64,000 nt of DNA from NCBI GenBank assembly GCA_015370545.1, contig GCA_015370545.1_3932.1. One strand, 5' to 3'. Below are positions 7,433 through 52,901 of this stretch, piece after piece. This DNA comes from a phage. Each line of letters starts with the position of its first letter. Position 1 is the first letter of the stretch. The position numbers and the translations under genes were made by a program. The notes below the pieces were generated by a model. The model worked only from the letters and a program-made list of their open reading frames with translations, was not told the origin of the DNA and ran no database searches.

Positions 7433-7762
7433 TTAATCTGCCAGCCTTAAATTAAAATTAACACCAAATTTTTCGCATATTTCCAACATATACTCAAGGG
7501 AGACATTACCAGTGAGGTGGATTATGTTGGATACGCGAGCCTGAGAGATACCACAAATTTTAGCAACTTGCTCTTGAGAAAGACCTCTGGATTTAATCTC
7601 TCTCTTAAAACGATGTGCAACGAAGTCTCTCATTTCGTCTACATCCATTGGACAAATATAACTCTCCATTTCAGCCTCTCTGTCAGCCTCCCAATCATCT
7701 TGTGGAGCATAAGGGTCAAAAGTCTCATTCATCTTTCTTCTTCCGTTTGCGTGAAGTGTCAA
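7433..7762 (-). CDS. helix-turn-helix DNA-binding protein
   Basis: 109 aa; LSQEQVAKICGISQARVSNI resembles an HTH motif. Confidence 0.5.
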   Translation of the reverse strand: MTLHANGRRKMNETFDPYAPQDDWEADREAEMESYICPMDVDEMRDFVAHRFKREIKSRGLSQEQVAKICGISQARVSNIIHLTGNVSLEYMLEICEKFGVNFNLRLAD

Positions 7763-11607: not shown

Positions 11608-11668
11608 AAGCCCTCCTATATAAGATATAGTATAAGGTACTCTTCCATGAGCACCTTGTCAATACTAA

Positions 11669-14368
11669 TTAGTGTACTTCAAGCCAGCTTTTACCAACCT
11701 TACCAGTACCTGTTACAAGTGTTTCTTTCTTAAGACCTAAGTTCTTAGAAGCTTGTCCATAATACCAGTCAGTAACTGATTTCACTTCTGCCGTCATACT
11801 TTCTGGACATTCCCAGCTTGTTTCATCGTGATATGCACAGAGTAAACGAGCACCAATAGCTGGTTGACGACCATTCAACTTCATCAAACCTTCGTCAATC
11901 ATACGACGACAAGCAAGGTTAATTGCCTCATTTTGAATCTGAGCCTCTGAACCCATCAAAAGATAGTTCAACAGTTTGTGTGGAGATTTACACCACAACC
12001 AAGCTCCAGCAACCTTTACAAAACCCCCTTTAGAGATTGCAGCGGTCTTACCAAACACCTCTTCAAGTGCCTTCTTAGTCGCTTTGTAGTCAGCTTCCAA
12101 GTCATCCAGCAGCTTCTTAATTTTAGGCAAACGAATAAAGTAAGTCTGTTTAGTCAGTGCACCTTCCTGAGTAGTTGCAGCTTTAATTGTCTTAGCAAAC
12201 TTCTCATCACCTGCACCGAACAGCAGTGCATAGATACCATTCTTAGCTTTTTTACGACCCTTACTAATCTCATGGAGAAGATTCTCATCCTGAGTGGCTC
12301 GACAAGTCAAGATATCCTGCTCATCATTCAAGCTAAAGTAAATACTGTTCAGTGTGTGTGCATCAGTCCCTGAATAGACAACGTACAGGTCATTCTCAGA
12401 GTCATAGCGAAGGTACTTATCAATCTCTGGGTTTAGGTACTCATCAAAGTGTTTGCAGTAATAGCGTCCATCTTCTTGACGAATAAACTCAATTTCTTCT
12501 TTACCTTGCGTTACCGCTTTGGTGAAGTCTTTGTCACCCATAAAGTTACAAAGGAGAACTAGCTGGGCTGAGTTCATGTCTACAGAGACAACATTAGTAC
12601 CTTCTTCACAAATCCACACTGCCCTCATTGGCTCCCCATAGACAGCAGCACCAGACGGTACGTTTACAATACCATATTGTGTCATACGTCCAGTTGAAGT
12701 ACCAAATACCATTGCACCAGCACTAAGGCGACCATCTGGACGAATCTGGTTCAGCCAACCTTTCTCGTCATCCTTTGAGTTCTCAATAGTTCTGCGTCGG
12801 TGCATCAAAGTATAGTACTTCGCAATCTTCTGTCCAAGCTCACCTTCAATCGTATCATAAGATGATTCAGTAAGTTTTGGTGAAGTACGGATTAAGCAAG
12901 GCTCAAGCAAATCTGTGTATTTCTTCACAGACCAGTTATGCTCGATGTACTGTACACCTTCATGTTCAACATAACTCAAACCACACCGCTCAACCATTTC
13001 CTGCCACTTAGGATGCTTTGTAATCATCTTTTTATTGTCTTTGAAACGACAAACTTTGACAGGGCGACCATCTGAGTCTTTCTTGTAATTCCAGTCATCT
13101 GGAATCCAACCAACTGATTTCAAGTAGTCTTTAACAACTGCTACCTGAGTCATACGAGAAACTTCAAACTCAATTGGTGTATATGGTGCATCAATCAATC
13201 CTGTGTAGCGACTTGACTCCAGTTCAAAGTGGTTAACAACATGGCTGTTATAGTACTTCACAGTTTTAACAGTTTTTACTGGCTTCCAGTCTTTGCATTT
13301 CTTACCAATCTTTGCATTCAACTCGTTGCAAATTGCACGAGCATCCTTCATTGCTACAAAGCCTTCCTTGTACTCTTCACCAGTTACAGAGTTGGTTGGT
13401 GTATAGCAATTTCTCTTTTCAATGTTAAAAATCTTTGTAGTTGGCTTACCAAATGGCTTGATTTCGTATGTCTGCATCTCACCGTTACGTACCTGCTGAC
13501 GATACTTTGTTTTAGGGTACTTGGTAATTCTCTTCAGTCCATCTGCATGACCGAATGTTTCAACATACTCATTCCAAGCTTTTGCAAACTCTTCTCCAGT
13601 GACTTTACCTTTGGTCTTAATAGTTGGAGGTAGATGTGGTTCAACCTCTGAAGCAAGTTCATTAGTCAATTTGTCAAGTTCCTTTACATGGAACTCCATA
13701 AGCTCTTTATCAGCTTTCCAACCATTGATAGCTTGTTGACTCATCCAGAAAGATGTTTCTTTAGCTCGCATATAGGTTTCATAGGTATCTATGCCACACT
13801 TCTTCAGCTTGAGATATTCATTATCTAGTGCACGTTTAGTTTTGGCGTTAATACGGATATCTTCTACAACACGAGTGAAGATTTCTGCATTCCATACACC
13901 CCAATGTTCAATCTCTGGTTTACGTACACCAACACGAGCACCCCATGCTGCCAAGCCATGAGCACCTTTATAACCTTTTGGAGTTGGTCTATCCATCCAC
14001 TGAACACGAGACTGGATAAGAGAATCCTGAAAGAAATTACTCCACGGCTTACACTTTGGATTATCAAAATTCCACAAATCAGGTGCAATGTGATTGAAAA
14101 CCCACCAGTCATACCCTAAACCATTATGGATGCAAAGTCGTTTTGCCTTTAACGCAAACTCAATACCTTCACGTAAGCCACCCTTAATGTACTTGGTATA
14201 CTTGTGACCGAGGATAGGCTCATCTGTAAAGACCCATACAGGTGGCTCTTCATCGTCAGATTTATAGTCTGCGAAAGCCATTACGTGCACTTTAGTGAAC
14301 TCAAGGAGTAAACCATCAGTTTCTGTATCACCAACTAAATGTAAGTTTTTAAAATCTACGTTTTCCAT
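11669..14368 (-). CDS. DNA polymerase, family A (Pol I-like) with 3'-5' exonuclease domain
   Basis: ORF 11669..14398; exo motif DTETDG; family A motifs DMNSAQL..., RRKAKNGIYALLFGAG and YHDE; start moved to the ATG at 14368 (MENVDF) because GAGGGAG sits just upstream. Confidence 0.9.
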   Translation of the reverse strand: MENVDFKNLHLVGDTETDGLLLEFTKVHVMAFADYKSDDEEPPVWVFTDEPILGHKYTKYIKGGLREGIEFALKAKRLCIHNGLGYDWWVFNHIAPDLWNFDNPKCKPWSNFFQDSLIQSRVQWMDRPTPKGYKGAHGLAAWGARVGVRKPEIEHWGVWNAEIFTRVVEDIRINAKTKRALDNEYLKLKKCGIDTYETYMRAKETSFWMSQQAINGWKADKELMEFHVKELDKLTNELASEVEPHLPPTIKTKGKVTGEEFAKAWNEYVETFGHADGLKRITKYPKTKYRQQVRNGEMQTYEIKPFGKPTTKIFNIEKRNCYTPTNSVTGEEYKEGFVAMKDARAICNELNAKIGKKCKDWKPVKTVKTVKYYNSHVVNHFELESSRYTGLIDAPYTPIEFEVSRMTQVAVVKDYLKSVGWIPDDWNYKKDSDGRPVKVCRFKDNKKMITKHPKWQEMVERCGLSYVEHEGVQYIEHNWSVKKYTDLLEPCLIRTSPKLTESSYDTIEGELGQKIAKYYTLMHRRRTIENSKDDEKGWLNQIRPDGRLSAGAMVFGTSTGRMTQYGIVNVPSGAAVYGEPMRAVWICEEGTNVVSVDMNSAQLVLLCNFMGDKDFTKAVTQGKEEIEFIRQEDGRYYCKHFDEYLNPEIDKYLRYDSENDLYVVYSGTDAHTLNSIYFSLNDEQDILTCRATQDENLLHEISKGRKKAKNGIYALLFGAGDEKFAKTIKAATTQEGALTKQTYFIRLPKIKKLLDDLEADYKATKKALEEVFGKTAAISKGGFVKVAGAWLWCKSPHKLLNYLLMGSEAQIQNEAINLACRRMIDEGLMKLNGRQPAIGARLLCAYHDETSWECPESMTAEVKSVTDWYYGQASKNLGLKKETLVTGTGKVGKSWLEVH

Positions 14369-14428
14369 TTTTACTCCCTCTAAAATCATTAACCTCATAC
14401 ATTACTGCAAAAAATTATAAAAAGCAAG

Positions 14429-14457
14429 TTGACAATGTACTTGACAAGGTGTTAATC
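14429..14457 (+). promoter_or_regulatory. sigma70-like promoter with tandem TTGACA boxes
   Basis: TTGACAATGTACTTGACAAGGTGTTAATC; 17-nt spacing from first TTGACA to TTAATC; same motif recurs at 60374 and 49873. Confidence 0.45.
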
Positions 14458-14625
14458 TTTGCGAAGTGGGTTTTTACTTAAAAGGTCACTTAACAGTTTA
14501 ACTATACAGATACTTTAAAACTCTTAAAAGATTATTTAATAGCTTTTAAAAAGCTTTAAAGTATAACGTATAGAATACGTTAAGATAAAAGATTAAAACT
14601 TAATAGTTACTTAAAAGAGGCTTAC

Positions 14626-15048
14626 ATGCAGAAAATGTTTGTTCACCCAGACATAGCTGACTTTGTTAGAGCTTTGCAGAAGTTGGAAGAACTTGACATT
14701 GCTGCTCAACGGGAATATGCTCACCATCACAGGAGAATGGTTGATATACAACATGAAATAGAGTTGTCTGAAAACTATGAAGATGACTTAAAATGCTCTG
14801 TATTTGAGCATATGAAAGATGTTGCTACAGCTAGACGTAAAGCTAAAGACACAGTTGCTTTACTAGATTCTCTTAAAAAGAGGTTGCAAAGTGGTACAGA
14901 CCTGTGTAATCTAGCGTCACTGATTAACGATGTTGAAACTTCTTGGGATAGGCACTATTATCCACGTTCTGAAAAGACACTTGACTTTTCTTCACCAGAA
15001 AACTTAAAATGTTCTAGAAAGAAACTTAACCAACTGAGAGAGAAATAA
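14626..15048 (+). CDS. hypothetical protein
   Basis: 140-aa ORF, first gene of plus-strand block. Confidence 0.5.
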   Translation: MQKMFVHPDIADFVRALQKLEELDIAAQREYAHHHRRMVDIQHEIELSENYEDDLKCSVFEHMKDVATARRKAKDTVALLDSLKKRLQSGTDLCNLASLINDVETSWDRHYYPRSEKTLDFSSPENLKCSRKKLNQLREK

Positions 15049-29707: not shown

Positions 29708-29861
29708 AACTTGACATGGTGGTGTGAGTCTTGATAGGCTTACATCACCTTTTTTATTGGATGTTAGATATGGCAGAGAGTATTATTGGGTTGTTCATAG
29801 GTTCTGTCTTACTAGGGTTCTTTTTAGGACTCTCTTATTGTGAATTAAGAGGCAAGTTAAA

Positions 29862-39431: not shown

Positions 39432-39510
39432 AGTGTTTGACAAGGGGCTTCAAAGCCCCTTAGAATAGCCTCACAAATTGATTGATTAACTAGCAAGAGA
39501 GAGTAATAAG

Positions 39511-45130: not shown

Positions 45131-45320
45131 ATTTCAAGATTGTGCAGGTAGAGTTCTGTAGAGAAATCTGTAGAGAAAATTTTGAACTCCAAAGAGAAAA
45201 TTCATTTTCAAACTGTGCAGGTAATCTCCAAAGAGCTTTTTCATTTTCAAAACGTGCAGACCCCGCTCAGGTCGGGCAAGAAAAATCATTTTAGAATTGT
45301 GCAGGTAGGTGGATGCAGGT
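45120..45320. repeat. four direct repeats of TTTTCAAAnTGTGCAGGTA-type unit in ORF-free DNA
   Basis: copies near 45125, 45205, 45245 and 45290; flanking CTCCAAAGAG also repeats. Confidence 0.5.
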
Positions 45321-45575: not shown

Positions 45576-45956
45576 ATGGCATACCGTGCACCTAAATTCA
45601 TCAACAAAGACAACTTCCGCAACGCACTGGAGAAGTCACTTGATGAAAAATTTAACGGCAAATTGATTGTTGTTCACGCATTCAATTTTAAGTATGATAT
45701 TAACGGGAATAAAATCAACCATTACACGGCAACCATGTTAGATGGTACGCTATCAAGTGAAAAAGCCGTACTGAATGCACTTGCAGGACGTGGTAAAAAC
45801 CTGATAAGCTGCAATAAGAGACGTTATCAAGGTGGCGCATATGGTTATGATGATGCTGTTTACCATCTTGAAAATATGGGCTATTCAGTGGAGAAAGCTG
45901 GAGCGTCTCAAATAATTGGTAGTGATGGTTATGTGACAATCTTCAAAATTAAATAA
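45576..45956 (+). CDS. small cassette protein 1
   Basis: 126-aa ORF behind conserved leader. Confidence 0.55.
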   Translation: MAYRAPKFINKDNFRNALEKSLDEKFNGKLIVVHAFNFKYDINGNKINHYTATMLDGTLSSEKAVLNALAGRGKNLISCNKRRYQGGAYGYDDAVYHLENMGYSVEKAGASQIIGSDGYVTIFKIK

Positions 45957-46042
45957 AAGTACTTTACAAGGGGCTTATAGTTCGATAAAGTAAGCCCCAG
46001 ATAAAGAGCTTTATCACTCAATCCTAAATTGGAGATTCAAAA
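45957..46042 (+). promoter_or_regulatory. conserved intergenic cassette (hairpin + palindrome + RBS)
   Basis: AAGTACTTTACA-GGGGCTTA...TAAGCCCC-AGATAAAGAGCTTTATC-...TGGAGATTCAAAA; one of four near-identical units. Confidence 0.55.
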
Positions 46043-46300
46043 ATGGCTATTATCAAAAACGTTGTAGTTCCTGCAAAAACTCGTGATGACGCTCGCATCA
46101 TGGCGAAAAAGTTAGGCGGGAAAGTGGTTGACAACGGAAAACAATCTGCTGTAAGATGGAGCGTGAAGGCTGATAAGCAACTAACCTTAAAACGCAGTTC
46201 AAACAATCTTTTTAAAGGTGTAAAATCACTCGGTAAAGTGAACGTGTTTACCAAAAAAGGCTATAAAATGCACTTATCATTAACTGGCAATTTAATCTGA
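46043..46300 (+). CDS. small cassette protein 2 (basic)
   Basis: 85-aa ORF behind conserved leader. Confidence 0.55.
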   Translation: MAIIKNVVVPAKTRDDARIMAKKLGGKVVDNGKQSAVRWSVKADKQLTLKRSSNNLFKGVKSLGKVNVFTKKGYKMHLSLTGNLI

Positions 46301-46390
46301 TAAAGTACTTTACAGGGGGCTTAAAAGCTGATATCTTAAGCCCCAGATAAAGAGCTTTACCACTCAATCCTTAAACTAGGAGATTCAAAA
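46301..46390 (+). promoter_or_regulatory. conserved intergenic cassette
   Basis: same unit as 45957..46042. Confidence 0.55.
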
Positions 46391-46903
46391 ATGAAAACTG
46401 TAGAAGCTACCTTTGAAGTTGTAAAAGAAAAATTTTCCATCATTTACGAAGCTGTTAATTGCTTTGAAGCAAGCCATAACCTTGATAATTGGGAGTTTAC
46501 AGATGACCATCAAGGCGGCGTGACTATTAAAAACCCCAACTGTCAGCGTAATGATTTTAAATATGCAATCCCTTTACATTACAGCCTTAAACAGCTTTCA
46601 AGTGACTATGCAAAACAAGGCCGGGAAAATCCATCAAAAGAGGCTTACATAAGCTTACAGAAAGAACTAGAAAGAGATTTAGAGGCTTCAGAATACAACC
46701 TTGCCGCGAAAGTTGTCGATGCAAATGGTCAAACAATTTTAGATAGTTTTTATATTGGTTACGCTTTCGATTGGTGCTATAGTGACGGCGATGATTTAGA
46801 GGATAGACTAAAAGAAGAGGTGAGCAATTCAGACGCAGAATCTGAAGTATTAGAACGCTTGGAAGCATTAAAAGATTCAGTGATGAATATCTTTAAGAAC
46901 TAA
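46391..46903 (+). CDS. small cassette protein 3 (acidic C-terminus)
   Basis: 170 aa; D/E-rich C-terminal region. Confidence 0.55.
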   Translation: MKTVEATFEVVKEKFSIIYEAVNCFEASHNLDNWEFTDDHQGGVTIKNPNCQRNDFKYAIPLHYSLKQLSSDYAKQGRENPSKEAYISLQKELERDLEASEYNLAAKVVDANGQTILDSFYIGYAFDWCYSDGDDLEDRLKEEVSNSDAESEVLERLEALKDSVMNIFKN

Positions 46904-47287: not shown

Positions 47288-47613
47288 TGACTGGTATCAC
47301 TGCAATCATTGCCATTTTCGCGCTATATAAGGCATATAAAGCCTATAATCTAGCAAATAAGGCAATCACACAGCAGGTTAGCAATAGCCTTGTAGAAAGC
47401 TTTCTAGGGCGTCTCAGTGATGAGCAAATAAAGCGGTTAGAAATGAGCTTCAGATTCAAAGCGAAAACCTATCAGATAAGTGACATCTTCAAGGATGATT
47501 TCCAGTTAGTCGATGATTATAATTCTCTGATAAATGCTTTAAATATCAGTGACTTAAAAGACTACTACGCTGTAATTGTTCAAGAGTTGAGCAAACGAAA
47601 ACAAAACTGTTGA
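47281..47613 (+). CDS. small cassette protein 5 (membrane anchor)
   Basis: 110 aa; N-terminal hydrophobic segment ITAIIAIFALY; overlaps previous stop. Confidence 0.5.
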   Translation: MLMTGITAIIAIFALYKAYKAYNLANKAITQQVSNSLVESFLGRLSDEQIKRLEMSFRFKAKTYQISDIFKDDFQLVDDYNSLINALNISDLKDYYAVIVQELSKRKQNC

Positions 47614-47702
47614 CACTGATTTTTAGATAGATTAAATTACACATCAACGGGGAGGGAACAACCTTCCCACTAAATAAAGTCCTTAAACTAGGAGATTCTA
47701 AA
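47610..47702 (+). promoter_or_regulatory. promoter + conserved 5' hairpin leader + RBS
   Basis: TTGACA-17 nt-TAAATT, CAACGGGGAGGGAACAACCTTCCC hairpin, TAGGAGATTCTAAA ATG. Confidence 0.6.
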
Positions 47703-47975
47703 ATGTATACTACTAACAATGGCCTCACTTTGAACGTCACACTACGTCACTATGTAGATGGTGTCATGCACTTTGAAGATTTACAAGCTGAACAACATAT
47801 CTTAGATTGGCAAGTCGCAGGACTCCAAAAAACTGCTACGGGATACGGTAAAAAGATTCCAACTAGTTGGAAAGTTCACTATGAAGGACGTTTGCGCAGA
47901 ATTTATCAAGATGTGCAAAGCAATAGCGCATCGAGTTACATTATAGTAAAAGGTGAAAAACTGCATTTAGTATAA
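47703..47975 (+). CDS. small cassette protein 6
   Basis: 90-aa ORF. Confidence 0.55.
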   Translation: MYTTNNGLTLNVTLRHYVDGVMHFEDLQAEQHILDWQVAGLQKTATGYGKKIPTSWKVHYEGRLRRIYQDVQSNSASSYIIVKGEKLHLV

Positions 47976-48060
47976 AGTACTTTACATGGGGTTTAAAAGT
48001 TGGTATCTTAAGCCCCAGATAAAGAGCTTTACCCCTAAATCCTAAATTGGAGATTCAAAA
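47976..48060 (+). promoter_or_regulatory. conserved intergenic cassette
   Basis: same unit as 45957..46042. Confidence 0.55.
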
Positions 48061-48465
48061 ATGGCTATTAATAATCGTGAGTTATCAATCTTAAAAGCAC
48101 GTTTAACCGTTAATCGAATCAATGTTATCACGTCATCAGCACCAGACGAGACATTACACAACATTATCGGGAAGATTCAAGGTGTTATCTTAGACGTTGA
48201 GAATGTAAAAAACTCATTAGCAGACGTTGCAGCAGGTGTTACACTAGACGGCGCACAATATGAAATGATTGACATGTTAGGCAAATCAAAGGTTATGAAT
48301 AAAGAGTTAGACTTAAAAATGTTTCGATTTGCCGTGAAAGTATGGCTATCTGTCGAGTATGATGCTAATTTTGCAATTGCTGATTTCTTTGCCACTTGGT
48401 TGCAACGTAACTTAACAAATCATGATTTTCGTGATATCTGTGATGCAATTTACGCAGAACTTTAA
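48061..48465 (+). CDS. small cassette protein 7
   Basis: 134-aa ORF. Confidence 0.55.
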   Translation: MAINNRELSILKARLTVNRINVITSSAPDETLHNIIGKIQGVILDVENVKNSLADVAAGVTLDGAQYEMIDMLGKSKVMNKELDLKMFRFAVKVWLSVEYDANFAIADFFATWLQRNLTNHDFRDICDAIYAEL

Positions 48466-48473
48466 AAATTTTA

Positions 48474-48565
48474 TTGACACTGATTTTTAGATAGACTAAA
48501 TTACACATCAACGGGGAGGGAACAACCTTCCCACTAAATAAAGTCCTTAAACTAGGAGATTCAAA
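48474..48565 (+). promoter_or_regulatory. promoter + conserved 5' hairpin leader + RBS
   Basis: TTGACA-17 nt-TAAATT; near-identical to 47610 copy. Confidence 0.6.
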
Positions 48566-49108
48566 ATGAAATGCTTTCACGGTACTACTCAAGAAAACTT
48601 TATCAACCTGATTAATAACGGTGATAAACCATCAGGTGTATGGAATTGTTCGGATATGGACGGCAATTTTTACGTGTACCCAGAAAATAAACTCTATGGT
48701 GATGATGAGGAAGAGATAGCATCGGAAGGTATCCAGCAAGCTCTAGGAAATGCCACTATCACGGCAGCTTTTCAGATGAAAACTCAAAATATTGTTATCT
48801 TAGAACTTGACATTCCAGAGGATGAGCTAAATGATGATTATTCTTGTGATAACATGTCAAATATAGCAAGCTTTACAGAGTACTTTGATGTAAATTGGAT
48901 TAAAAAGGTCTATACAACAGAGTTCAACGCTATGTATTCACCTTTTTGTCTCCCTTCACTGGATAACCCAAATTTGAATTATCTTGATGAAACATTGGAG
49001 CTACTTGCTAAAAGTATCCAACAATCCGACAGTATTCAGGTTTTTTGTGACATCATGGATACACTGACAGAAAACATTGTAGAGAGTGATTTAAAGGTCT
49101 TTTTCTAA
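48566..49108 (+). CDS. small cassette protein 8 (highly acidic)
   Basis: 180 aa; very D/E-rich with almost no Arg. Confidence 0.55.
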   Translation: MKCFHGTTQENFINLINNGDKPSGVWNCSDMDGNFYVYPENKLYGDDEEEIASEGIQQALGNATITAAFQMKTQNIVILELDIPEDELNDDYSCDNMSNIASFTEYFDVNWIKKVYTTEFNAMYSPFCLPSLDNPNLNYLDETLELLAKSIQQSDSIQVFCDIMDTLTENIVESDLKVFF

Positions 49109-49174: not shown

Positions 49175-49408
49175 ATGCTTACAACCATTTATCTCATCCT
49201 TTCTATCTGTAACGGTCATTCATGTGACTTTAAAGGGCTTGAAGAGTTTACAGGAAGTAAAGAAAATGCTATTCAGGTTTGCCAGATAGCAAGACAAGAC
49301 TATCCCGCCAGTGACGACATTCAATGCTACTTTAAGACAGAAGATGAAGACGGCATCTATTTTGACAGCGTTGACGGTCAATATGAAATTATCATTGAAA
49401 AAGACTAG
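49175..49408 (+). CDS. small cassette protein 9
   Basis: 77 aa; hydrophobic N-terminus, acidic body. Confidence 0.5.
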   Translation: MLTTIYLILSICNGHSCDFKGLEEFTGSKENAIQVCQIARQDYPASDDIQCYFKTEDEDGIYFDSVDGQYEIIIEKD

Positions 49409-49499
49409 ACAAGCCTGATAAAAGTCTGTAAATTGTCAATCAACGGGGAGGGAATGACCTTCCCCACTAAATAAAGTCCTTAAACTAGGAGATTCAAAA
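49406..49499 (+). promoter_or_regulatory. promoter + conserved 5' hairpin leader + RBS
   Basis: TAGACA-17 nt-TAAATT then CAACGGGGAGGGAATGACCTTCCCC hairpin. Confidence 0.55.
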
Positions 49500-49872: not shown

Positions 49873-50062
49873 GTTGACAATACCCCTTGACATTGGTAAC
49901 TTTGTTCGAGGGGGTTTATCTAAAAGGGATTCACTTAATAGATTCTTTATAGATAAACTTAAAAAATTGCTTGCAAAGGCAAATCAAAACAAGTAAATTA
50001 CTAATCAACGGGAAGGGATTAACCTTCCCACTAAGTAAAGTCCTTAAACTAGGAGATTCAAA
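49873..50062 (+). promoter_or_regulatory. tandem promoters + conserved 5' hairpin leader
   Basis: TTGACAATACCCCTTGACA at 49873, then TTGCAA-17 nt-TAAATT at 49971, then CAACGGGAAGGGATTAACCTTCCC hairpin. Confidence 0.5.
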
Positions 50063-50593
50063 ATGAACAAGTTTCAAGCTATCAACTATATTCGCTCATC
50101 CAACGTTATGACTAAGCCCGTTAAAGATACCTTCGAATTTCGTTGCAACGGTGTACACTTTGCAACTATCACTAAATCAGAAAACGGGGCTTATTATATA
50201 CATCGTCGTAATGCCTCTACTGTTGTAGTCTCTCACTTTATGCAAGCTGTAGCAGAACTGTTACCGCTATTCTTAGGTATTTACTTAGATGAGTGCAAAA
50301 ACGTTCGCAACCACGTTAAAGACCTTTTAAATGGTTATAAAATGGCTTATGAACGTTCTATCAAGAATCTTAACAAGTTCTATAAAGCCCCTGAAAATAC
50401 TGTTTCAATGGCTTACAGTGTAAGCGGTGAGTTGGTTAGCCTCTTTGAAGTGGAAGAAATCGCGTTGCATGACTTACGCCCTAGCGGTTACTCTAAGACA
50501 CTAGAGGAAGGTTTAACGTTCAATATCAAGAACTTAGAAAAAACTTTAAAAGATATTGAAAAAGATATTGACGAGACAATCAAAAATCTGTAA
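50063..50593 (+). CDS. small cassette protein 11
   Basis: 176-aa ORF. Confidence 0.55.
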   Translation: MNKFQAINYIRSSNVMTKPVKDTFEFRCNGVHFATITKSENGAYYIHRRNASTVVVSHFMQAVAELLPLFLGIYLDECKNVRNHVKDLLNGYKMAYERSIKNLNKFYKAPENTVSMAYSVSGELVSLFEVEEIALHDLRPSGYSKTLEEGLTFNIKNLEKTLKDIEKDIDETIKNL

Positions 50594-50655: not shown

Positions 50656-50919
50656 ATGGAAAACGTAGAATTAACCACACTTTTACAAATTGCAACCGAC
50701 AAAGAAGATGTAGCATTATTCCACCGTATCGAAAGCGATTTGTTCAATGGTGAAATCATTAAAGAATCTTACGAAGTTGTCGGATTCAAAGATGGTAAAG
50801 CATTTGGCTTTTTTGACCTCGACAAAAGCAAAGCGGTTACAATGTACGATGTTCTATCTTGTGAAATTCTGACAAAATACAACGAAAAAAGGCTTGCAAC
50901 CTACGCCAATATGCAGTAA
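50656..50919 (+). CDS. small cassette protein 12
   Basis: 87-aa ORF. Confidence 0.55.
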   Translation: MENVELTTLLQIATDKEDVALFHRIESDLFNGEIIKESYEVVGFKDGKAFGFFDLDKSKAVTMYDVLSCEILTKYNEKRLATYANMQ

Positions 50920-50986
50920 ATTACTAATCAACGGGGAGGGAATGACCTTCCCACTAAACAAAGTCCTAAACTGGAGAATCTAAATT
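50894..50986 (+). promoter_or_regulatory. promoter + conserved 5' hairpin leader + RBS
   Basis: TTGCAA-18 nt-TAAATT then CAACGGGGAGGGAATGACCTTCCC hairpin. Confidence 0.5.
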
Positions 50987-51235: not shown

Positions 51236-51273
51236 TCGACGCAACGGGGCTAAATAGCCCCAGATACCTTTAC

Positions 51274-51296
51274 AGCCCCTTAAATGGGGCTTTTTT
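51274..51296 (+). terminator. rho-independent terminator ending the cassette array
   Basis: AGCCCC-TTAAAT-GGGGCT followed by TTTTTT; preceded by a second GGGGCTAAATAGCCCC hairpin. Confidence 0.65.
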
Positions 51297-51299
51297 ACG

Positions 51300-52860
51300 T
51301 CTATCGAATCCTTATACAATCCCTTTCCCTTTCCTTTCTAGAATCTTATCAGACCTTAAAAAGCAATAACTCTATAGTCTACTCTATAACCTCTTATCAA
51401 ATCAACTTAAATATAAGCCAATAACCCCAGAAAGGGGATGGCCCATTAAAACGCTCTATAAAGCTCTATAACAGCCTTATCAACCTAACTTAAGCAATCA
51501 TATTAACCCACTCTAAAAAGCCCTTTATAGAGCTTCCCAGAGCCTTAAAAGAATCTTATAAGGGTGAAAGCTTATAGGCTGGCTAGTATCTTGTGAATAA
51601 CTAAACAATCCCCTTGATAGTCACTAAAAAGCATGTTATAGGGGCTATAAAGTTACTTCAAAGTAACGTAAAAAAGGCTATAAAGTTACGTAAATGCTAG
51701 CCCCCTTAACATTTTCTTAACAATTTCTTAACAATCCCTACATAGTTATGCTTGTTAGAGACTTGTTAGCCCCTTGTTAAATCTCTGTTACAACCATGTA
51801 AAAGCCTTGTAAGAACCTTTGACATAGCCTTAAAAGCCCTGTAAAGCCCTATAAAGAGCTATCCATACAGTTGGGCTGTAGTTACTAGGGAGAGACTTAA
51901 AAGGGGCTATACAGAGCTATAGAGGGCTTTTAAGAGGTATGTTTAAAGAATCACTAAGAATCAAAGGGAACGATAAGAAAAGAGATAGTGACCATGTTAA
52001 TAGCTTGTTAAAAAGATTAAACACTTGTTAGAAACTTGTTAATTATCCCTACAAAATAACTCTTTAAAATTAACTTGTTAGCTCTTGTTAGTCATCTGTT
52101 AAGACTCTGTAAAGACTATTCAGCACTTGTTAGAAAACTGTTAAGTTCTTGTTAGTTCTGTTAAGAAACTGTTAAGACCTTTGGAGAGTTGTTAAGAGCT
52201 TGAGAGAGTTGTTAAGAGATTGTTAAGGATATTTTAAAATTCTGCAAAGTACTTGTAAGGGAGCTGTTAAGGGCTACCAAGCAGATATACATCTTCTACA
52301 GATATTTTTCAGTTCCTTCAAAGACCCTAAAAAATGACTTGATAGCCCTATTTTATAAAAATTTTAAAATTCTGAATAATTACCTAGACAGTCTTTTAAA
52401 AATACAGGTAGAAACAGGCTTATAAGATACCTTGTTAGTACCGTGTTAGACCTTGTGAGATAAGGTCTGTGAAGATATTCCTGTTAAGTTTGTTAAAACA
52501 GTCTATATAGAGGCTTAGTAGTACCTAGTGAACATCTATAGAGGGTATCATAGCTAACCTAGAGATTAAGAGGTGTATAGGGGCTTCTAAGAGGGTATAG
52601 AGAGATGGTTAAGGTGATTGTATAGGTTGTTAAGAAGGATTGTTAGAAGAGTGTTTAGAGGGCTATTTAGAAGGGTTATACAGAGGGCTATTAAGACCAC
52701 TAGATAGTTACTAAGATACTATATAGTACTATATAACTATATAGAGAGTAAGATTAAGAAGGTTGTTAAGAAGGATAGATATCTTATTCACATATGATGG
52801 TGACCCAGAGGTTGGGACAACCGATAAAATTTTATAAAAATATAAATTTCGTAAATTTTA
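51300..52860. repeat. ORF-free iteron-rich region (candidate origin or packaging/regulatory locus)
   Basis: no ORF of 60 aa or more; dozens of (C/T)TGTTA(A/G) units at about 10-11 bp spacing (densest 52010-52260); repeated TATA(A/C)AG(A/C)GCTAT and GGCTATAAAGTTAC units; ACTATATA triple near 52720. Confidence 0.6.
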
Positions 52861-52901
52861 CTCAATAAAAAGCCCCCAATTAAGGAGGCTCTTAAGATAT
52901 T

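Follow-up and report, generated by a model that had tools for sequence, protein, structure and literature searches.

The 64,000-nt stretch analysed here (the window) is a segment of a Felixounavirus (Felix O1/wV8-like) genome. A 3-kb portion around the element at 14.4 kb matched 257 phage records, nearly all of them from Felixounavirus (Felix O1, wV8, VpaE1 and others), and the best match was Escherichia phage Pr103Blw (MW481326) at 98.6%. The complete Pr103Blw genome (88,421 bp, with direct terminal repeats of 581 bp) opens at its left end with a leftward block, followed by a divergent junction and a long rightward block that carries the gp41-like gene, tRNAs, terminase, structural genes and holin. 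A middle leftward block, from thymidylate synthase through DNA polymerase, leads to a second divergent junction, after which the last rightward block (primase/helicase, nucleotide metabolism, rIIA/B and many small genes) runs to the right end. The site at 14.4 kb in the window is the polymerase junction, corresponding to Felix O1 genes 96/97, and the site at 60.4 kb is the other divergent junction, corresponding to genes 40/41. By synteny with MW481326, as opposed to base-by-base alignment, the physical genome ends should fall inside positions 51236–52901, a 1.67-kb non-coding stretch between the end of a rightward block and the start of a leftward block that is dense in short repeats (e.g. 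CTTGTTAG and TGTTAAGA). The two divergent gaps are 227–228 bp long:

14399–14625: gap between the DNA polymerase gene (11669–14398, minus strand) and the ORF at 14626 (plus strand)
60295–60522: gap between the ORF at 60112–60294 (minus strand) and the ORF at 60523 (plus strand)

Each gap carries on its plus strand a copy of a 24-mer built around two TTGACA hexamers, TTGACAATGTACTTGACAAGGTGT at 14429–14452 and TTGACAAAGTACTTGACAAGGTGT at 60373–60396. The copies differ solely at one position, which an earlier sequence-only reading had written as n. That reading had placed the second copy at 60374 and a related tandem TTGACA at 49873; both are there, each one base away from the position given (60373 and 49874). 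Allowing up to three mismatches, the 24-mer has two matches in the window against 0.00 expected from 100 dinucleotide-preserving shuffles, and the looser pattern TTGACA-N4-8-TTGACA occurs three times (14429, 49874 and 60373) against 0.13 expected. The proposed search of a complete phage genome gave the same picture: Pr103Blw (MW481326) contains two exact tandem sites, at the two junctions and nowhere else, and its third site reads TTGACG...TTGACA. The observation is real and non-random. Beyond the 24-mer the two gaps resemble each other only in scattered motifs, such as ACTTAAAAGGT approximately 30 nt downstream.

We refer to the upstream hexamer as copy 1 and to the downstream hexamer as copy 2. 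The polymerase junction contains the following features:

14409–14428, plus strand: A-rich tract AAAAAATTATAAAAAGCAAG, directly upstream of the putative -35 and apparently UP-element-like
14429–14434, plus strand: copy 1, TTGACA, the putative -35 of a rightward promoter for the gp97-like operon
14441–14446, plus strand: copy 2, TTGACA, located in the spacer 6 nt before the -10 and invariant across genera
14450–14458, plus strand: TGT followed by the putative -10 TAATCT (hexamer at 14453–14458), N18 from copy 1, with TG at -15/-14
14465–14625, plus strand: predicted untranslated leader of ~160 nt, counted from a predicted start site, with no ORF of at least 20 aa
14399–14427, minus strand: candidate leftward promoter for the DNA polymerase gene, with TTGCTT (14427–14422), N17 and TAATGT (14404–14399)

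In Mooglevirus the rightward -10 reads TAGTCT, and the geometry of the leftward candidate is retained as TTGCTT-N17-TAGGGT. The AAAAAGCAAG portion of the A-rich tract is invariant across genera, which would be explained by the candidate leftward -35 lying 1 bp from copy 1. The predicted leader holds three CTTAAAAG motifs and a hairpin at 14566–14582 (ACGTATAGAATACGT), in which two base pairs are changed on both sides in other lineages; two of the three Mooglevirus sequences have ATGTATAACATACAT.

The arrangement recurs at the gp41 junction and, in a looser form, at a third site:

60360–60372, plus strand: A-tract GTTAAAAAAGTTG, upstream of the -35
60373–60378, plus strand: copy 1, TTGACA, the putative -35 of a rightward promoter for the gp41-like (DUF5681) operon and the equivalent of 'P41' of Felix O1
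60385–60390, plus strand: copy 2, TTGACA, 5 nt before the -10 and invariant across genera
60396–60401, plus strand: weak putative -10 TAGGCT, N17 from copy 1, without TG at -15/-14
60319–60347, minus strand: candidate leftward promoter TTGACT-N17-TACCAT, which would serve the minus-strand block
49874–49902, plus strand: third, looser copy, with TTGACA (49874–49879), 7 nt, TTGACA (49887–49892), TGG and TAACTT (49897–49902)

At the gp41 junction the -10 reads TAGCCT in Suspvirus and Mooglevirus and TAAGTT in the IMG/VR lineage L037, and the stretch surrounding the candidate leftward promoter is invariant across genera. The leader, from a predicted start near 60407, is ~115 nt long and has no ORF. 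The second gene of the gp41 operon (60976–62391) encodes a 471-aa protein with DUF2828 and DUF7788 domains; Yersinia phage P778 has a homologue with the annotation 'RNA-binding protein'. The third site precedes the ORF at 50063, near the right genome end and not at a junction. Its TAACTT lies N17 from copy 1 with TG at -15/-14, and its copy 2 lies 4 nt before the -10; in relatives this copy 2 is invariant, and copy 1 is either TTGACA or TTGACG. All three sites have in common an A-tract followed by copy 1 and a weak putative -10 of the form TAnnYT located 17–18 nt after copy 1. The two junction leaders fold only modestly better than shuffles (z = -1.7 and -2.8), and an Rfam scan of the whole window returned tRNAs and no other known RNA family.

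Identity of the two gaps reaches at least 99% in 148 of 259 and 187 of 253 records, compared with mostly 90–99% for the 3-kb stretch that spans the 14k gap and its flanking genes, which indicates that each whole gap is constrained. Within this background the alignments of Felixounavirus, Suspvirus and Mooglevirus show a distinct pattern: at both junctions the two hexamers, together with the C that precedes copy 2, do not vary, and the bases between the hexamers vary in four of six columns at 14k and five of six at 60k (Fisher p = 0.005 and 0.0007 compared with the hexamer columns). The intervening sequences include ATGTA, ATTCA, AAGCA, AATCA and AACTG at 14k, and AAGTA, AAGGA, AATGA, TTCTT, TTCCT and AGCCT at 60k. 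A -10 candidate is found 17–18 nt from copy 1 in every lineage and only its inner positions vary, the variants by group being TAATCT/TAGTCT, TAGGCT/TAGCCT/TAAGTT, TAACTT/TACATT/TAATGT and, in the Hafnia phage, TATTGT and TACTCT. Altogether the promoter geometry is retained in at least seven phage lineages, including the following other relatives:

Hafnia phage Zyzzx, polymerase junction: TTGACAgaacTTGACA, then TATTGT, N17 from copy 1; hexamer offset 10 bp
Hafnia phage Zyzzx, gp41 junction: TTGACAaacacTTGACA, then TACTCT, N17 from copy 1; hexamer offset 11 bp
Erwinia phages Hena2 and SunLIRen, polymerase junction: single hexamer, TTGACA-N17-TACATT
Yersinia phage P778, polymerase junction: single hexamer, TTGACA-N17-TAATGT
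Yersinia phage P778, gp41 junction: single hexamer, TTGACA-N17-TAAAGT
IMG/VR lineages L043 and L044, gp41 junction: single hexamer, TTGACT-N17-TACCCT and TTGACG-N17-TAAGCT, respectively

The most stringent comparison is with the distant phage Zyzzx: its genome (85,869 bp), in which the neighbouring DUF5681 protein is 58% identical, contains exactly two exact tandem sites and these lie at the same two junctions; its offsets from hexamer to hexamer (10 and 11 bp) compare with 12, 12 and 13 bp in the window. The tandem site is absent across the whole 90,106 bp of Yersinia phage P778. In the Erwinia relatives a second TTGACA sits downstream of the -10 at the gp41-side junction. In four lineages both junctions were examined, and the spacer tandem was present either at both (Felixounavirus and the Hafnia phage) or at neither (the Yersinia and Erwinia phages). 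Because the single-hexamer relatives keep the same geometry, copy 1 is the positional homologue of an ordinary -35, and copy 2 is, on this comparison, an addition present in some lineages.

The sequence-only reading had taken the elements to be strong early promoters recognised by host RNA polymerase. Recognition by the host enzyme agrees with the sigma70-type anatomy, the orientation into the rightward blocks and the conserved geometry, a basis consisting of sequence and comparison only. The -35 is a perfect six-of-six TTGACA at 14429, 60373 and 49874, and each exact copy stands at the head of a plus-strand block at a divergent junction. The putative -10 hexamers, TAATCT (N18), TAGGCT and TAACTT (both N17), each match the consensus at three of six positions, retaining T-12, A-11 and T-7; since the threshold of the consensus scan was four of six, none of the three was called. 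The label 'strong' was therefore not borne out. The label 'early' did not gain support either: in end-point RT-PCR on Felix O1, a coarse measure, the timing was mixed, with genes 41, 42, 96, 97 and 98 maximal at 25 min after infection and genes 21 and 22, located behind the third site, peaking at 5 min. A search of the literature for start-site mapping or RNA-seq on Felix O1-like phages returned nothing usable.

On balance we think that the element is probably the -35-to-spacer core of a conserved host sigma70 promoter module. Such a module would head the rightward unit at both divergent junctions, namely the gp97-like replication/nucleotide-metabolism block and the gp41-like/tRNA/structural block, and a third paralogue would lie near the right genome end. 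Copy 1 would be the working -35, positioned after an UP-element-like A-tract and 17–18 nt before a weak -10, with TG at -15/-14 at two of the three sites. Transcription would start ~7 nt past the -10, near 14465, 60407 and 49909, leaving long untranslated leaders. We note that at the third site copy 2 is more conserved than copy 1, which counts against this reading.

Other assignments of the hexamers were considered and rejected. For sigma32 (CTTGAAA...CCCCATnT), sigmaE (GAACTT-N16-TCTGA) and sigma54 (GG-N10-GC), either spacing or conservation failed. An upstream rightward promoter, which would place the tandem inside a transcript, would have to use a TATAAA at 14416 that is without a -35 and not conserved. 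The reverse complement TTGTCA could serve as a leftward -35 only for copy 1 at 60k (TTGTCA-N18-AATAGT) and not at 14k, and so would not be a function common to both junctions.

The promoter reading is well supported by the sequence comparisons and was partly anticipated by existing annotation. For Felix O1, Whichard et al. 2010 (PMC3185647) predicted a promoter P41, TTGACA-N15-TATAGG, which is the 60k element; there Felix O1 and Pr103Blw read GGTATAGGCT and the window reads GGTGTAGGCT. The same paper states that, apart from P41, the 40-41 and 96-97 gaps hold no obviously homologous promoter-like sequence, and that the temporal control of Felix O1 transcription is not understood. Two GenBank records carry 'promoter' features at positions equivalent to 14429–14458 (KR014248, AYO145A) and 14429–14456 (MZ726792, ASO1B) of the window. 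All three predictions are in-silico pattern matches that occupy the same positions as the element and use the upstream TTGACA as -35. The tandem hexamer, the shared 24-mer and the cross-genus conservation are absent from the P41 paper and from both GenBank records; there appears to be no earlier description of a conserved second -35 hexamer at the two divergent junctions, and a literature search turned up no precedent for tandem -35 hexamers.

The role of copy 2 is less straightforward. Judging from the alignments, it is under selection of its own. Our best guess, held with low confidence, is that copy 2 is a docking and tuning site for sigma region 4: located 4–7 nt before the productive -10 and without a -10 of its own, it would offer sigma70 region 4 a second docking site that competes with or feeds the productive register and thereby tunes the promoter. 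We lean towards sigma docking because the two copies share only the six bases read by sigma and because their offset floats over 10–13 bp, which a dimeric regulator would not easily accommodate. Against tuning, a built-in decoy is an odd target for selection.

The main rival is a regulator operator, in which the hexamer pair would be bound by a phage regulator, or by a lineage-specific host regulator, that switches the three promoters off or on. We regard this as unlikely. The direct repeats fall on the -35 and the spacer, where repressors usually act, and both hexamers are under selection; the temporal control of Felix O1 is unexplained, and the occurrence of the spacer tandem at both junctions or neither in the four lineages would also fit a lineage-specific trans-acting reader. 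Moreover, the phage encodes a 109-aa HTH_3 (Cro/C1-type) protein (7433–7762, minus strand), the homologues of which were found by tblastn in Felixounavirus, Suspvirus and Mooglevirus. However, what the two copies share is no more than the sigma70 consensus hexamer, and the offset varies within a single genome (12/12/13 bp here and 10/11 bp in the Hafnia phage). By tblastn the HTH_3 protein had no match in an Erwinia, Hafnia or Yersinia phage, yet the Hafnia phage keeps its tandem sites, and an HTH domain was found in none of the nine Hafnia phage ORFs scanned (the polymerase-side block and the junction). Fixed half-site spacing, conservation beyond the polymerase-contact bases and co-occurrence of site and gene were not found for the tandem and the HTH_3 protein. 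Nor did the shared regulator site ACTTGACAAGGTGT that the earlier reading had proposed stand up to comparison: the only bases fixed across genera are those of the two hexamers and the C that precedes the second one, the GTAC varies, and at 60k AAGGTGT becomes AAGCTGT or AACGTGT in other genera. This 14-mer is not enriched in the window (15 matches with up to three mismatches against 9.8 expected), and for the HTH_3 protein, the one recognisable HTH protein of this phage, tblastn gave no match in the Hafnia phage, which retains the tandem sites. The palindromes AAGTACTT and CTTGnCAAG were set aside, since their bases vary or they are too short to be read by a dimeric HTH protein. Separately, the HTH_3 protein shows a sub-threshold match to sigma70 region 4, and it is the sole obvious DNA-binding protein among the ten scanned.

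A related and quite improbable alternative is that the two hexamers provide two registers for one -10 and so switch the timing of both divergent hubs of the Ounavirinae. Host polymerase, when unmodified, would work from the distal TTGACA at N17-18, and a phage factor would reposition sigma region 4 to the proximal TTGACA at N4-7; in a variant of this reading, the proximal hexamer would be recognised by a phage protein that resembles sigma region 4. Lambda Q and the Thermus phage protein gp39 reposition sigma region 4.

It is very unlikely that the hexamers belong to two overlapping promoters offset by 12 bp, with each hexamer acting as the -35 for a separate start. There are indeed two perfect -35 hexamers, and the form of copy 2, CTTGACAAGGTG, resembles the -35 regions of the single-hexamer promoter candidates at 29711 (N18 TAGGCT) and, on the minus strand, 11662 (N17 TACCTT). 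We looked for a -10 belonging to copy 2 at 15–19 nt downstream of it at all five sites (three in the window and two in the Hafnia phage), but no TAnnnT was found; furthermore, the indel at 60k in Suspvirus and Moogle shifts everything downstream with no compensating change.

Both the conservation pattern and the Hafnia phage speak against chance or neutral duplication, which would leave the second hexamer functionless, and we would give this reading very little credence. Because the gaps are highly conserved overall, invariance of the hexamers alone is weak evidence of function. The variable positions, however, cluster exactly between the hexamers, and the Hafnia phage, at 58% identity in the neighbouring protein, has the tandem at both junctions with other offsets.

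It is highly improbable that the tandem acts at the level of DNA, for instance as an iteron of a replication origin that may be transcription-primed, as the origins of T7 and T4 are. The gap beside the polymerase gene is AT-rich and GC skew switches at 14 kb and at 60 kb, but the skew tracks the direction of transcription anyway, there are just two repeat units, these units are a -35 consensus at promoter geometry, and the third copy lies away from any junction. Finally, the opposite strand, TTGTCAA-N5-TTGTCAA, could be viewed as an OmpR/PhoB-type (Pho-box-like) site that controls the leftward promoters, a Pho box consisting of two CTGTCAT-like 7-mers with an 11-bp period about 10 bp upstream of the -10. 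The TGTCA core does recur at 11 bp at the gp41 junction of the Hafnia phage, and at the 14k junction a minus-strand TATAAT follows 9 nt after the repeat; this reading is nevertheless extremely unlikely, as the two junctions of the window have a period of 12 bp and the Hafnia polymerase junction one of 10 bp, the TATAAT at 14k is not conserved outside Felixounavirus, and the distance to the leftward promoters differs by ~25 bp between the junctions.

Compared with known systems, the tandem element is a modest but clean variation on known promoter architecture. Sigma70 promoters that combine an UP element with a consensus -35 include E. coli rrnB P1 and the early promoters of coliphages T5 and T7. 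The element shares with these the A-tract, TTGACA, a 17–18 nt spacer, A-11 and T-7, and the predicted use of host polymerase; it differs in that its -10 is just TAnnYT and that a second perfect -35 hexamer occupies the spacer. At lac P1/P2 and gal P1/P2 each register is served by a -10 of its own, and CRP switches between them. There too a second element recognised by polymerase overlaps the productive promoter as a potential competitor, although copy 2 is without a -10 and has no known switching factor.

In the Q-engaged paused complex at the lambda late promoter PR', sigma region 4 binds a second -35-like hexamer, TTGACT. This resembles the tandem in placing an extra -35-like hexamer near a -10-like hexamer within one promoter region; the extra hexamer of PR' lies at the start site and acts after initiation, whereas copy 2 precedes the -10. 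An even closer parallel to lambda PR' and its sigma-dependent pause site is the gp42 promoter of Erwinia phages: in phage phiEa21-4 (L014 630-690) and in L040 it reads TTGACA-N16-TAGAAT, 6 nt, CTTGACA, one base and AAGAAT, and in Erwinia phage M7 AATGTT takes the place of AAGAAT. Short direct repeats also straddle the -35 of phage promoters that set timing, as with the lambda CII site, TTGC-N6-TTGC with a fixed 10-bp period, and the T4 MotA box at -30. The tandem element is like these sites in arrangement but differs from them in sequence, and no homologous factor was found in this phage. PMC4837284 also mentions the P22 C1 motif.

Felix O1-type phages are widely used in the typing, detection and biocontrol of Salmonella and E. 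coli. The gene 97 block gains a predicted promoter where the Felix O1 genome paper could find none, and both divergent hubs carry one common predicted module. The conserved second -35 hexamer poses a small, well-defined puzzle of promoter architecture; if copy 2 only tunes, the finding amounts to a useful annotation and no more.

The other promoter candidates in the window have one TTGACA, and most have a better -10 (TAATAT, TAGAAT, TATACT, TAAATT or TAAAGT), examples being those at 62410 and 62501. The suggestion that TTGACAATGTG opens a promoter at 62410 was confirmed, the site having the canonical form:

62410–62438, plus strand: single-hexamer promoter TTGACA-N17-TAATAT, ahead of the tRNA cluster and in a terminator-like hairpin; outside the tandem class

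Its TTGACA lies in the loop of a hairpin (62402–62438) that is listed as terminator t42 in Felix O1, and TAATAT follows the stem. At 39437–39466 a GGGGCTTCAAAGCCCC hairpin fills the spacer of TTGACA-N18-TAGAAT. Two further single-hexamer candidates, TTGACATGGTG...N18 TAGGCT at 29711–29740 and TTGACAAGGTG...N17 TACCTT at 11662–11634 on the minus strand, have the same TTGACA(A/T)GGTG start and TAnnYT -10 as the tandem sites.

The 8-mer CTTAAAAG occurs 25 times in the window against 5.7 expected, with three copies in each junction leader (14477, 14523 and 14610; 60422, 60484 and 60493) and four in the terminal non-coding region (51544–51934). As some copies coincide with terminator loops or ribosome-binding-site contexts, the 8-mer may not be one signal.

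Several longer repeats are found elsewhere in the window. Between 45528 and 50993 at least seven small ORFs are preceded by a repeated leader module, ATCAACGGGGAGGGAAnnACCTTCCC(C)ACTAAATAAAGTCCTTAAACTAGGAGATTCAAAA, that runs up to the start codon, with copies at, for example, 47610–47702, 48474–48566, 49407–49499, 49971–50063 and 50894–50986. It holds a GGGGAGGG/CCTTCCCC hairpin, and two copies are preceded by a TTGACA-N17-TAAATT promoter; part of the module was listed as 39-bp repeats by Whichard 2010 (PMC3185647). A second intergenic module of ~97 nt, CTTTACAnGGGGCTTAAAAG...AAGCCCCAGATAAAGAGCTTTACCACT...GGAGATTCAAAAATG, is located at 45956–46052, 46302–46398 and 47974–48070, and corresponds to the 57-bp repeats reported for Felix O1. 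In a gene-free gap of 520 bp, three tandem-like copies of ~34 nt ending in TGTGCAG (CTCCAAAGAG...CATTTTCAAAnnGTGCAG) occupy 45187–45304.
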